Shown here: one piece after another, positions 16,006 through 20,995 of the stretch | How positions within the stretch are numbered: position 1 is the stretch's first letter | How the letters are laid out: every line of letters starts with the position of its first letter | DNA from: a virus | Length of the DNA stretch: 44,457 nucleotides | IMG/VR virus record: IMGVR_UViG_3300017922_000005 | Span: 1-44,457 of that record | Direction: 5' to 3' (one strand) | Notes under the pieces: model-generated | Databases searched by the model: none | What the model was told of the DNA's origin: nothing | What the model saw: the letters and a program-made list of their open reading frames with translations, nothing else | Translations under genes and position numbers: made by a program

Positions 16006-16449
16006 TCACTCCTCCAGTAATCCGTGATTCCCACGAATTTCGTATGTTGATTTGCCAAATTTGCGTGCCCACTTAAATATCTGGTCTGCGCAATCCGGTT
16101 TATTTATATCGTCCTTTATGCAATGAATGCTGTCAGAATCAAATGGCTCGTCAAAAGGGATGCATGCTGTATCAATTCCGCATTCCTCGACCAAATCGTA
16201 TAAGTCCTCACTGCGCATCTCATCAAGCGTCATTGCCCTGCCTATCAAGTCTGCCCATGCAACTTGGGCAATCTCGTCATACACGGAGTAACCCACGAAT
16301 TGAAACTTGACCTCCGACATTTCAATAAAAGTTGGCTCATGGCAGATGCCCACATCGACATCATCACCATTATGCAAACGGAATCTCAAAATGTGTGTGG
16401 CAACTTCGTCATATCGATAATACCCACGATCCTTGTCCTCATTATTCAT
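16006..16449 (-). CDS. Hypothetical acidic protein
   Basis: 147 aa; GGAGG RBS, TAATG overlap. Confidence 0.75.
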   Translation of the reverse strand: MNNEDKDRGYYRYDEVATHILRFRLHNGDDVDVGICHEPTFIEMSEVKFQFVGYSVYDEIAQVAWADLIGRAMTLDEMRSEDLYDLVEECGIDTACIPFDEPFDSDSIHCIKDDINKPDCADQIFKWARKFGKSTYEIRGNHGLLEE

Positions 16450-16643
16450 TATGCATCCTCCATTATAATCTCGACTACGGTTTCACCAACATCGCCTGCT
16501 GGATCATCCTCATCACGGGTGAACACACGAATTTGTTTCACGCCTGCAAGGGAATCCTTGTTCAGGTTAAATTCATCATGCTTGTCGCTGAAAGTCACGT
16601 GCTTGGTGACTTGCCTAACTGTAAATTGACGTTTCTCTCCGAT
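16449..16643 (-). CDS. Small protein, 64 aa, apparent ATC start; not in ORF track
   Basis: AGGAG-CGTGAAACT-ATC; (I)GEKRQFTVRQVTKHVTFSDKHDEF...VVEIIMEDA-TAA overlapping the next ATG. Confidence 0.55.
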   Translation of the reverse strand: MGEKRQFTVRQVTKHVTFSDKHDEFNLNKDSLAGVKQIRVFTRDEDDPAGDVGETVVEIIMEDA

Positions 16644-16690
16644 AGTTTCACGCTCCTGTTGTTAATTTCACGGTTGCTTCATGCTTCACT

Positions 16691-16822
16691 TCACGCCTGC
16701 GATTTCACGCAATCGTGAAGGACGTCCGAATGCGCAACCACACGCATCCGGATTCCGTCCCATGAATCCTTGTCCTCGTGAATGAATGGGGTCAGATCAA
16801 ACTGCCCCACCATTCGACTCAT
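16691..16822 (-). CDS. Small protein, 43 aa, inside the hairpin array; not in ORF track
   Basis: MSRMVGQFDLTPFIHEDKDSWDGIRMRVVAHSDVLHDCVKSQA; starts 6 nt after the upstream stop; weak RBS. Confidence 0.45.
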   Translation of the reverse strand: MSRMVGQFDLTPFIHEDKDSWDGIRMRVVAHSDVLHDCVKSQA

Positions 16823-17032
16823 TCTGAGTCAAATGAATTCATCCCTGTGGGATGAATACCAATCGTCCCGACGATATTCTGACCTCACGTGACCAGAATC
16901 CATGACGAATCCCATGGCACCATTCTTCTGAATGAACGTGCGCACAATTCTGCTATTGTCGCTGCAATGCTTGGCTGCTGGTTTCATGGCTGAACCTCCC
17001 AGTTCAGCCAGTTTGAATTCACAAATTCAAAC
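16704..17032. other. Array of about 15 abutting hairpins and palindromes
   Basis: Stems at 16704-19, 16728-49, 16750-69, 16784-815, 16816-30, 16837-57, 16862-75, 16876-99, 16900-17, 16921-34, 16952-70, 16987-17010, 17011-32; palindromes GGACGTCC and GTGCGCAC. Confidence 0.75.
16829..16987 (-). CDS. Small protein, 52 aa, inside the hairpin array; not in ORF track
   Basis: GGAGG + 7 nt + ATG; MKPAAKHCSDNSRIVRTFIQKNGAMGFVMDSGHVRSEYRRDDWYSSHRDEFI. Confidence 0.55.
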   Translation of the reverse strand: MKPAAKHCSDNSRIVRTFIQKNGAMGFVMDSGHVRSEYRRDDWYSSHRDEFI

Positions 17033-17246
17033 ATAACTGATCCTCACCAAATTCGACATTCCTGACAGTGGTTCCAAACCGATTCAGGAACAATTCATGC
17101 ACATTGTCGTGGATGTTCTCGGCAATTGCGCTGGTCAATTCTTTCACGCCATTGTGGTCAATCCTGTCGCTCACATTCACGACCACGGTTTCACGTGCAT
17201 GCCTGCCATGATCATTCATGACATCAATTTGGATGTTGAGTTGCAT
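17019..17246 (-). CDS. Small early protein
   Basis: GGAG RBS; 75 aa; no Tyr. Confidence 0.7.
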   Translation of the reverse strand: MQLNIQIDVMNDHGRHARETVVVNVSDRIDHNGVKELTSAIAENIHDNVHELFLNRFGTTVRNVEFGEDQLCLNL

Positions 17247-17279
17247 TTCAATCGCTCCAAAAAAGTGAATTGGTTGGGC

Positions 17280-17618
17280 TCATTGCCCAACCTGTGACTC
17301 TAATTCAGCAATGCGCTGCTTGAGCAATTCCTCCTTGGATGGCTCGTGCATTGCGTCATCAATGACATCCTTGAGCTGCATTGCTACCAATTCACCCACG
17401 AATTCCTCTGGGGTTGGTTGCAATTGCGCTGCTGACTTGACTGACTTGGATCGCTTGAGGTCACGTGGCGCTGGTTCCTTGATTCCCAACCTCACCAACC
17501 AGCGTCGTGCATTCTCTCTGCTGCATTCCAATTCCTTGGCAACTCCAGTCACGGATTGCCTCACGTCCCATGCGTCACGAACCGATTGCTCGTCAATTCC
17601 TTTGTGGTTGCTGCTCAT
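17280..17618 (-). CDS. HTH DNA-binding protein, first gene of the leftward arm
   Basis: SVTGVAKELECSRENARRWLVRLGI HTH; C-terminal short coiled coil; no Tyr. Confidence 0.75.
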   Translation of the reverse strand: MSSNHKGIDEQSVRDAWDVRQSVTGVAKELECSRENARRWLVRLGIKEPAPRDLKRSKSVKSAAQLQPTPEEFVGELVAMQLKDVIDDAMHEPSKEELLKQRIAELESQVGQ

Positions 17619-17661
17619 ACTTGATCACGTCCTGCCATGGATGGGAGCGGGTTGCGCTGAT

Positions 17662-17685
17662 CCGGAACCGAACCGGAACCGAACC
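17662..17685 (+). repeat. Tandem 11-bp repeat (CCGGAACCGAA x2.2)
   Basis: Seen directly in the GC-rich segment upstream of the first leftward gene. Confidence 0.85.
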
Positions 17686-17859
17686 AGCATGCCGCCCCAT
17701 CCCTCGGCAATCAACCCGATGAGGTGGGCGCTCGTGCTGTGATCGCTATCGGGCGCCATCGGCAATGGTTTGCTGGTGCTATGCGATGGCGGCAGAGGTC
17801 GGTGGCGGGGTTGAATCGGCATCGGAATCCGATGTCCGGTGGGGTTTGCTAGAGGAAAT

Positions 17860-18790
17860 AAGAATCTGATTGCCGATATTCGTCGTTTGTGAAACCGGAA
17901 AAATAATTCTAATTGAGTACAAAAAAGGGGAACCACTTGTTTGATTTTACAAATGTAGTCAGCAATTTAATTCCGACATAATAAGAAACCGGAATCTGAT
18001 TGCTGTTTGTATTTTCGTAAACCAAATAAAAGAATTAGTTAACTAGTAAACCGGAAATTAAAAAATAATTAACTAGTAAACCAGAAAAAGGTTGCCGATT
18101 TACGAGCAGTCAAATATCGGAAACCGATTGCCGAAAATATGAAAATGAGTTGGTAATACATATGAAATATTATATAGATTAGGTACTTCGTAATAATGAG
18201 TTTATAGGGCGTATGAAATATTCTATAAATTAGGTACTTAGTGGTAATTATTTTGATTCTCATTCTAAGTGAGAACATACACAATACATCAAATCTTACA
18301 AAAAACAAAACCTTCTTATTTATGAAGTGTCTTATTATACATAATTATCAAGGACAAGGAATTAGAGCATATTATGCTGAAAATATGAGTACACACCCAT
18401 CAATCGATTTAATCAAGTGTTATGCGTTTGATGGGGATGATCTATGTGGGTTATTTACGGTTAAATAGATAGGATAGCATAATTCCTTCAACAACAATTA
18501 AACATGCAAATGCTACACCTATTAATGGATTATTTGGATCATATTTCAATTCAGAAAATTGAAATAAAAATAATGCTTGTATTATTTTATATATCATGTA
18601 AAATACTAAATCTCATGAAATTCCATGAAATACAATATAATATGACCCCATATAATCCCACATGGCACCAATAAATATTGCACCAATAAATACTACACGA
18701 TATTTTATTAGGTACCCAAGGGTATTTCCTATTACCAGCATATGTCCAGAAAGATTAACTCAAAGTACGTACGTAAAAATAATTTATAAG
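17860..18790. promoter_or_regulatory. AT-rich divergent control region with several direct-repeat families (candidate origin, promoters or terminus)
   Basis: AAACCGGAA at 17892, 17986, 18048; TTAACTAGTAAACC(G/A)GAAA at 18039 and 18069; 28-bp TATGAAATATT..TTAGGTACTT at 18161 and 18212; GCACCAATAAATA at 18665 and 18680. Confidence 0.65.
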
Positions 18791-18800
18791 GACATGGAAT

Positions 18801-20242: not shown

Positions 20243-20995
20243 ATAACAACACCAGTAAGAACATTTCACTGTAAGACAGGAAATATAAATAGAATACATG
20301 AAGTAATGGTGAGAACCATCCTGAATGAAGGCGAAGATATTGTCTTTGGAGATGCAAAAGAGCAGAAACACGCACGAAATATTTATGGTATACTGATTCT
20401 GGAAAGACCAGCCATTGTAAAAGCCATAGATAAAACTCCGGAAATGTATCCATGGGGAGGCAAGAAAGCCAGAATATTTAGGGATGAATTCCTTGCTGAT
20501 TGTAGGAGACTGGAAGTAAGCAAACAGGGATTTGATTACACATATCCAGACCTATTGAAATGCTTCCCTGCTAAGAATTCAGAATATGGAATGAATCAAT
20601 TTTACGTATCCCTCGATAAATTGAGAGAGGATATGAAAACTGGCATTAGCAGCAACAGAAATATTGGTGTACTCTATAATCCTTGTACTATGTATGAAAT
20701 GAAAAATCTTCCATGTTTCAATGAATTCCAAATAGTATATGAAGGCAATGCAAAAGGTTCTTTGAGACTGACTTTCCGTTCCCATGATTGGGGAACTGCT
20801 GTATGGGCGAATGTAATGTCCATTGCCAATGCTTTCAATGAATTGGTATTTAAGCCAGCAGACTGTAAGCTTGATAATATTATTATTAATTCTTATTCTG
20901 CCCACATATATAAAAACGATATGGGGTATTATGAAAAGATGTTAAATTCTAAAACTGCAAGAATGAAACAGGCAATATCCAGGACGATAAAATGA
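20243..20995 (+). CDS. Thymidylate-synthase-family enzyme; probable ATA start at 20243 (first ATG at 20306)
   Basis: LPCFNEFQ catalytic Cys, FRSHDWGTAVWAN, SAHIY; GGAGG 7 nt before ATA with an open frame TTPVRTF... Confidence 0.85.
   Translation: MTTPVRTFHCKTGNINRIHEVMVRTILNEGEDIVFGDAKEQKHARNIYGILILERPAIVKAIDKTPEMYPWGGKKARIFRDEFLADCRRLEVSKQGFDYTYPDLLKCFPAKNSEYGMNQFYVSLDKLREDMKTGISSNRNIGVLYNPCTMYEMKNLPCFNEFQIVYEGNAKGSLRLTFRSHDWGTAVWANVMSIANAFNELVFKPADCKLDNIIINSYSAHIYKNDMGYYEKMLNSKTARMKQAISRTIK

Follow-up and report, generated by a model that had tools for sequence, protein, structure and literature searches.

A local TpA desert over the presumed first transcription unit of an uncultured tailed virus

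The avoidance of a short word in a viral genome is normally read as the footprint of a host enzyme. UpA is suppressed in RNA viruses and in mRNAs, RNase L-type cleavage falls at UA and UU, and the target sites of MazF/Kid/PemK-type toxin ribonucleases (RNases) have UAC or UAH cores. T7 and T5 have first-entering or pre-early regions in which anti-defence genes are found and restriction sites are missing. A universal codon-pair bias, in which nnUAnn is avoided and nnCAnn preferred, was reportedly described by Tats et al. in 2008. Here we analyze a local desert of the dinucleotide TA (TpA) in IMG/VR virus record IMGVR_UViG_3300017922_000005, a linear record of 44,457 bp that is 79% complete and is analyzed at its full length (hereafter, the window). 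The window encodes a family B DNA polymerase, a large terminase (TerL), a portal, an SU10-type major capsid protein, and a tail tube, indicating a tailed virus. Its minus-strand genes lie up to 17618 and its plus-strand genes start at ~18800, diverging from an AT-rich spacer. The desert is the first 1.4 kb of the leftward arm, directly after the last iteron-like repeat of this spacer.

Between 16681 and 17820, the window contains 9 TA (at 16857, 16875, 16954, 17034, 17301, 17385, 17618, 17747, and 17780), compared with 65.8 expected from base composition, an observed/expected ratio (O/E) of 0.14. The count is zero between 17036 and 17300. An earlier note on this DNA had given 9 TA in 1140 nt, with ~60-70 expected, and the same TA-free gap; our recount agrees exactly. 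In a sliding-window scan, the O/E per 500 nt is 0.09-0.16 in the desert and 0.35-1.13 in the rest of the window, so the depletion falls outside the range of the rest. TA returns abruptly to an O/E of ~1.0 from 17850, where the note had placed a sharp end. Two extents are used below.

16477-17849, no strand: TA desert, maximal log-likelihood segment, 14 TA in 1373 nt.
16664-17849, no strand: deep part of the TA desert, 9 TA in 1186 nt.

The maximal segment scores 50.4 nats, and the second-best segment of the window scores 10.4. In 300 first-order Markov simulations of the window, the maxima have a mean of 7.4 (standard deviation 1.2) and the largest is 12.6. The maximal segments of three unrelated phage genomes score 8.6-9.9. 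In a complete relative, G001 (IMGVR_UViG_3300006807_000001; 56,499 bp with a 123-bp end overlap, 96-99% identical to the window), the desert is the genome-wide TA minimum.

The loss of TA is mirrored by a gain of CA and TG and a rise in GC. In particular, CA, TG, and AT are all up ~1.5-fold (AT O/E 1.46 in 16681-17820, in line with the abundant AT steps noted earlier), and the desert is the most GC-rich part of the early arm (GC 0.51 vs 0.41). AATT, TT, and other A/T-rich words are abundant or enriched. TA-free 4-mer palindromes number 66 against 50 expected, and GAATTC, CACGTG, CCATGG, and GCAATTGC are present. Therefore, there is no avoidance of palindromes in general, in agreement with the note.

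On the minus strand, the desert runs through a leader, the first gene (A112), a hairpin, three open reading frames (ORFs) of 75, 52, and 43 aa, and a fifth small gene. These features and the adjacent spacer are as follows.

17850-18800, no strand: divergent spacer, AT- and TA-rich, with iteron-like repeats and promoter-like units.
17619-17849, minus strand: leader, ~230 nt, GC-rich and TA-poor (2 TA vs 7.9 expected), without a convincing ORF.
17280-17618, minus strand: A112, first gene, 112 aa, no Tyr, TGA stop, 2 TA (O/E 0.11).
17272-17292, minus strand: 8-bp GC-rich hairpin over the A112 stop codon, predicted from the sequence.
17019-17246, minus strand: second ORF (B75), 75 aa, GGAG ribosome-binding site, no Tyr, TGA stop.
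16829-16987, minus strand: third ORF, 52 aa, GGAGG ribosome-binding site, TGA stop.
16691-16822, minus strand: putative fourth ORF, 43 aa, zero TA, TGA stop.
16449-16622, minus strand: fifth small gene, start codon uncertain, with 37% identity to the third gene of the desert of a relative (L022, below).

The desert fades inside the fifth small gene; the stop of this gene overlaps with the start of the following ORF, which encodes 147 aa and has normal TA.

The depletion does not follow from the encoded proteins. When the codons of the five desert ORFs are redrawn from window usage at fixed proteins, 54.7±5.2 TA are obtained (minimum 36 in 5000 draws), and when synonymous codons are permuted within each gene, 25.4±2.6 are obtained, compared with 11 observed. 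Amino-acid composition alone thus does not explain the depletion. TA per codon in phases 1-2, 2-3, and 3-1 is 0.009, 0.015, and 0.012 in the desert and 0.038, 0.049, and 0.067 in reference genes. The depletion is 5- to 20-fold across all three codon phases and the non-coding leader, and is equally strong at non-synonymous Tyr codons and at synonymous sites. The desert proteins contain 2 Tyr against 12.6 expected; the 112-aa and 75-aa proteins, the two larger ones for which the absence of Tyr had been pointed out, contain none. Every complete ORF of the deep part ends in TGA, the sole stop codon without TA. The codon resampling, the phase data, the Tyr deficit, and the leader depletion together indicate that the constraint acts on the nucleotide string. 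In accordance with what an RNase target (UpA) would show, the depletion is independent of codon phase and amino-acid content and reaches the untranslated leader. The central proposal of the earlier note, a depletion of the nucleotide sequence itself over the first genes beside the divergent spacer, is supported.

The desert recurs in diverged relatives. Relatives were reached through TerL homologues (56-69% identical) on contigs with the same divergent architecture, and five other lineages carry syntenic A112 homologues with 35-80% identity. In each ~21-kb locus of L007, L011/L012, and L014, the top-scoring TA-poor segment falls on the A112 homologue (O/E 0.24 over 371 nt, 0.34 over 640 nt, and 0.26 over 924 nt, respectively); the runs of N in these loci lie away from the TA-poor segments. 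L022, a 1768-bp contig with an A112 homologue, has an even deeper desert than the window, with 3 TA in at least 1419 nt (O/E 0.04), extending from 205 nt upstream of the helix-turn-helix (HTH) gene to the end of the contig, across three more small genes. In the window and L022, the proteins of which are ~40% identical, the desert starts at the same boundary, directly after the last copy of the conserved repeat ATATCGGCAAyCrGmTTCyTATT. The TA O/E over eight A112-family genes is 0.06, 0.11, 0.27, 0.30, 0.38, 0.44, 0.51, and, in a paralogue, 1.15; Tyr is absent from all eight. A112 itself has 2 TA in the window and 6 in G001 at 96% protein identity. Therefore, the location of the desert is conserved, and its depth is lineage-specific and fast-changing. 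A depth that changes this fast and varies by lineage is more in keeping with a host-specific arms race than with a universal constraint. An A112 family alignment searched against IMG/VR returned only an already known relative, and a conserved leader word had no match in viral or metagenome contigs.

The TA depletion has a companion signal confined to the sense strand. Sense-strand CT (plus-strand AG) has an O/E of 0.39 in the window, 0.60 in L022, and 0.53 in L014, compared with ~0.85-0.93 for sense-strand AG, and TT is raised. The bias is most apparent at codon junctions, written here as last base/first base.

Codon junction T/A: window 0.19, L022 0.04.
Codon junction C/T: window 0.07, L022 0.00.
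Codon junction C/A: window 1.86, L022 1.74.
Codon junction A/T: window 2.3, L022 1.8.
Codon junction T/G: window 1.6, L022 1.6.

The C/T junction occurs once in the ORFs of window 16449-17618 and is absent from the L022 genes, against ~11 expected, and in-frame CTN codons persist. The junction matrices of the window and L022 are nearly identical despite the low protein identity. Ordinary genes show the same directions weakly (T/A 0.76, C/A 1.40). In addition, CGTGAA is enriched on the sense strand only, with 8 copies in the window (16477-17849, minus) and 5 in L022:349-1767, against ~0.6 expected. It is found in two codon phases and in non-coding sequence, with an inverted pair, TTCACGcaatCGTGAA, at 16703-16720, and may be a binding site. 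The sense-strand T content is not reduced in the window desert (22% vs 23%); in L014 and L022, T makes up only 3-13% of the sense strand over the HTH gene.

An odder feature still occupies the syntenic position in a further relative. The contig L013/L029/L030 (ENA ERZ23498665 scaffold_256; 57,310 bp, closed by a 55-nt self-overlap, TerL 57% identical), on which no A112 homologue was found, contains ~2.6 kb with ~25 T in total on the leftward sense strand (L013:1-2202 plus L030:1-430), just past the AT-rich spacer. A second T-less block of 0.7 kb (L030:1200-1950) follows after a short normal stretch, inside an ATG-started 309-aa low-complexity ORF. Such blocks would yield U-free RNA. The 2.6-kb block is non-repetitive and sharply bounded; it could be an assembly artefact. 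A copy of ordinary early genes hypermutated from A to G is not supported as its source, as there is no matching excess of G or C.

A112 is best described as a small DNA-binding regulator, judging from its family profile and predicted fold. The AlphaFold model has helices at residues 10-20, 23-30, and 34-43 with pLDDT ~90, followed by further C-terminal helices, and the family profile matches multi-HTH_23 proteins down to E 1.8e-17; profile and predicted fold thus agree on an HTH_23-like three-helix core. Foldseek with the model gives weak matches only, all to HTH domains and none significant. No usable family emerged for the desert ORFs from PHROG or Pfam, and A112 has no direct Pfam match. 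Among 5.8 billion proteins, A112 falls in its own cluster only; its family profile, compared with 1.8 billion representatives, retrieves six close members and generic HTH repeats. The hairpin at the A112 stop is possibly an attenuator. A T6 run lies 7 nt downstream of it, and it is therefore not a canonical terminator.

The leader starts directly after the last iteron-like repeat copy (17853-17882) and holds a block of primary sequence conserved in L022 and L011. A structured leader RNA is not supported: RNAalifold gives only -11.8 kcal/mol for the conserved leader, with no covariation support. Neither Rfam (E up to 1) nor ARAGORN detected an RNA gene. The spacer contains GAATCTGATTGCCGA-type iteron-like repeats about every 130 nt, for which relatives carry ATCGGCAAyCGGyTTCC, and two TTAACTAGTAAACCGGAAA units. 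Its minus strand has a 51-nt tandem pair of promoter-like units, TACCTAATyTATAkAATATTTCATA, and L022 carries a related motif, ATCGGCAACCGGCTTCC. The spacer may be an origin or an operator array.

The desert also varies among strains. Between the window and G001, it has 30 substitutions, 27 of them transitions and 11 toggling a TA. The indels between G001 and the window are a 120-nt deletion in B75 (17110-17229) and a 49-nt insertion in the leader at 17691, and two sequencing runs carry a 66-nt skip in the second ORF (17157-17224). In four other samples, the window and G001 alleles are again found at intermediate frequency, and the Logan contigs are broken up between 17100 and 17660. The stretch 17100-17700 is thus a hotspot of strain variation and indels. 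Divergence in A112/B75 is 3.6%, mostly through synonymous transitions, compared with 1.1-1.7% elsewhere. The flux of TA suits either a mutation-selection balance in CA/TG-rich sequence or an active local bias.

The low TA content is probably upheld by selection acting directly on the sequence. The conserved position and sharp motif edge, the equality of synonymous and non-synonymous sites, the inclusion of the leader, the strand-specific companion, the T-less counterpart, and the variable depth point to a host-differing selection on the first transcription unit. We place first, tentatively and as a possibility rather than a probability, an avoidance at the RNA level of a candidate UpA nuclease in that unit, under selection that varies by lineage. 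The desert would be the 5' part of a leftward, presumed immediate-early transcription unit that encodes, after the leader, the HTH protein and four small proteins. Selection on the nucleotide sequence would keep this unit almost TpA-free, with replacement mainly by CpA and TpG, and would avoid CpT more weakly and on the sense strand only. A host endoribonuclease of housekeeping, toxin, or defence type would cut the first viral transcripts at UpA, and the messages needed before any counter-measure would carry no target. The pressure would vary by host lineage, leading to deserts of varying depth in related viruses.

In a loose ranking of the four agents listed in the earlier note, a UA-cleaving RNase, as a candidate, fits best. 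Avoidance of restriction sites or protospacer-adjacent motifs is unlikely, because every TA context is lost and because the real restriction avoidance here is of another kind. The 56.5-kb G001 genome has a single GGCC where 87 are expected and a single CGCG where 21 are expected, with AGCT, GATC, and CTAG at about half of expectation; the window shares this avoidance. This genome-wide loss of GGCC and CGCG is classical restriction avoidance, strongest at G/C-only sites, and the desert shows no such genome-wide depletion of a palindromic word. Spurious TATA boxes and archaeal histones, the other two agents, fit poorly: both readings are strand-symmetric and therefore do not explain the sense-only CT avoidance or the T-less block.

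Several points weigh against RNA-level avoidance. The desert fades within an operon and not at a transcript end. We know of no RNase with a specificity that matches the CU avoidance. The A112 paralogue L007b has normal TA (O/E 1.15). The 2.6-kb T-less strand has no canonical start codon, so the link to mRNA protection is unclear. Finally, the number of window-G001 substitutions that toggle TA (11/30) and the intermediate frequency of TA alleles indicate that purifying selection per site is not strong, or that a mutational process contributes too.

A local mutational bias comes second and is unlikely. Transitions from TpA to CpA and TpG, together with CpT to TpT on the non-template strand, would accumulate in the most or earliest transcribed stretch, and selection at the protein level would be too weak to resist in small, fast-evolving genes. 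The CA/TG gain and GC rise that match the TA loss, the junction biases as exaggerations of weak genome-wide trends, the variation hotspot with its shattered contigs and mostly synonymous transitions, and the TA-toggling differences between window and G001 are all consistent with such a bias. However, it does not account for Tyr codons as depleted as synonymous sites, or for a sharp boundary at a conserved repeat that is the same in two lineages with ~40% protein identity. The T-less sense blocks of the relative are impossible to obtain from C-to-T changes on the non-template strand and have no matching G/C excess. A diversity-generating retroelement as the source of the bias would need a reverse transcriptase, which is absent: a six-frame search of the window and the complete relative for RVT_1 gave no match, and templated hypermutation is thus not indicated.

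An improbable alternative is that the virion DNA is modified. A stretch of 11 kb that is present in G001 and absent from the window encodes NrdD, a dTMP-kinase homologue, and a 349-aa homologue of adenylosuccinate synthetase.

L017:13454-14503 (= G001), minus strand: PurZ-like adenylosuccinate-synthetase homologue, 349 aa, PF00709 E 1.7e-48.

NrdD, the dTMP-kinase homologue, a PrimPol-like protein, and a PD-(D/E)XK nuclease are its neighbors. Its P-loop has the Asp-to-Ser change that we take to define PurZ, a view that PMC8342488 supports only indirectly. The loop reads GSEGKGK, as in the phage PurA-like entry 7vf6, compared with GDEGKGK (with the catalytic Asp) in PurA; the protein is thus a short PurA homologue with a PurZ-type active-site change. 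It scores equally well against solved phage PurZ proteins and against archaeal PurA. Homologues are present on the L013 and L009 contigs. The gene suggests, as a candidate marker, DNA in which 2-aminoadenine (Z) possibly takes the place of A. The DNA read first would then have lost its T-Z steps, and in the T-less relative all template-strand Z, if host RNA polymerase or another factor handles Z badly. In a variant of this reading, a context-specific thymine hypermodification would spare TA.

In favor of modified DNA, the T-less sense blocks of L013 leave the template strand free of A, and thus of Z, and the T-poor sense strands of L014 and L022 tend the same way. Avoidance across the whole genome is limited to G/C-only sites. 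Tan et al. (2022, cited by PMC10786293) reportedly saw T7 RNA polymerase and Pol II blocked by up to 92% when the template held a single Z, and thymine hypermodification is reportedly specific for TG and TC contexts and rare at TA and TT (PMC13458397). On the other hand, three known PurZ phages have no desert, and we rejected the proposition that a Z genome always entails a desert. Neither DatZ (HD) nor MazZ (MazG) turned up when the complete genome was searched in six frames and the neighboring ORFs were scanned with Pfam, leaving a Z genome unproven. The T content of the window desert is normal, and nothing known singles out T-Z steps. TT and AATT, which would be unmodified contexts, are enriched, arguing against the simple thymine version. 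The link of a Z genome to the desert is speculative; that the TA desert and the T-less blocks are both adaptations of such a genome, giving a first-read stretch without polymerase-stalling Z contexts, is a long shot. If true, it would be a sequence-level solution to the cost of a non-canonical base.

A promoter-free zone is the next alternative and is also improbable. Sigma-70 -10 hexamers and archaeal TATA boxes alike have TA at their core, and the loss of TA would remove both on both strands, preventing spurious sense and antisense initiation beside strong divergent early promoters. In accordance, promoter calling gives no site from 16390 to 18219, the spacer next to the desert is TA-rich and has promoter-like repeats, and a T-less strand would likewise exclude both promoter types. 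However, the purge goes beyond the need, as it extends to Tyr codons and to isolated TA with no promoter-like context nearby. The explanation is strand-symmetric and leaves the sense-only CT avoidance aside, and the relatives presumably share the need, yet the depth of their deserts differs widely.

Avoidance of nucleoid proteins is very unlikely. Xenogeneic silencers favor AT-rich DNA with TpA steps, and incoming DNA poor in the flexible TpA that H-NS, MvaT, Lsr2, Rok-type silencers, and archaeal histones prefer would stay unsilenced before early proteins are made; that the desert is the most GC-rich part of the early arm agrees with this. However, this reading is strand-symmetric too, AATT and A/T-rich words are still abundant, and the promoter spacer beside the desert, rich in TA, would be silenced too. 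A foreign insert, or a chance fluctuation of unusual composition, is scarcely credible: the GC content is distinct and the genes are orphan outside this virus group, but syntenic homologues in five other lineages contradict a horizontally acquired island, the segment score is far beyond the null, and the depletion is beyond any codon usage. We rank RNA-level nuclease avoidance first. Behind it come a local bias in mutation, an effect of modified DNA, and the avoidance of promoters; avoidance of nucleoid proteins and a foreign origin are unlikely.

Sequences near-identical to the window occur in public runs of at least 18 studies of subsurface, groundwater, and oil-field metagenomes, none of which is listed as RNA. 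DNA searches of public phage records with the desert and with the terminase-portal region gave no match. TerL relatives in genome bins are mixed, at 27-43% identity (Planctomycetota, Synergistaceae, Methanobacteriaceae, and others). Tail-region proteins at L017:7358-8851 (plus strand) and from L011:21532 onward match CBM96 and disaggregatase-related repeats, the repeat match of the L017 protein being below the Pfam cut-off; these domains are known from Methanosarcina-type disaggregatases. The tail-protein domains and the subsurface and oil-field habitats hint at a methanogen host, but the genome-bin matches are mixed. The window further encodes, at 20306-20995 (plus strand), a divergent thymidylate-synthase-like (ThyA-like) protein whose Pfam match is limited to the C-terminal half of the model and for which solved structures offer no match in sequence. 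It could be a hydroxymethylase.

A sharply bounded, near-total desert on the first transcription unit, recurrent in diverged relatives, would point to a pressure confined to the very start of infection. Candidates for this pressure are an unrecognised UA/TA-specific nuclease, a constraint of modified DNA (possibly 2-aminoadenine) on host transcription, and a targeted mutational process. If the agent is a dinucleotide-specific defence nuclease, the desert would be the mark, in immediate-early genes, of an immune pressure of a new kind. The footprint of a TA desert could serve to find immediate-early, likely anti-defence, genes in uncultured viruses.

In the literature, we found no description of a local TpA desert over phage early genes; sequence avoidance is a known kind of phenomenon, present here in a variant that we have not found described. 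Like the pre-early regions of T7 and T5, the desert is a short block of small genes with special composition that would open the early programme. Here, however, the signal is a dinucleotide and not a set of enzyme sites. The desert resembles UpA suppression and toxin-RNase sites in that UA is lost in all codon phases in favor of CA and UG, as the logic of endoribonuclease escape would have it. It differs in that it lies in a prokaryotic DNA virus, is limited to one transcription unit, is far deeper (O/E 0.04-0.17), and is accompanied by a CU avoidance outside known patterns, and in that the RNase here is only proposed. With restriction-site avoidance, it shares the removal of a short word from viral DNA by selection. 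In contrast to such avoidance, it is local (1.4 of 56 kb), affects a dinucleotide whatever its neighbors, leaves other palindromes untouched, and comes with a strand-specific companion. With the universal codon-pair bias, it shares the directions at the codon junctions, of which ordinary genes of the window show the weak form. In the desert, the bias is 5 to 20 times stronger, and this strength, together with its reach to Tyr codons, NUA codons, the choice of stop codon, and the leader, indicates that the desert is not a codon-pair effect alone.

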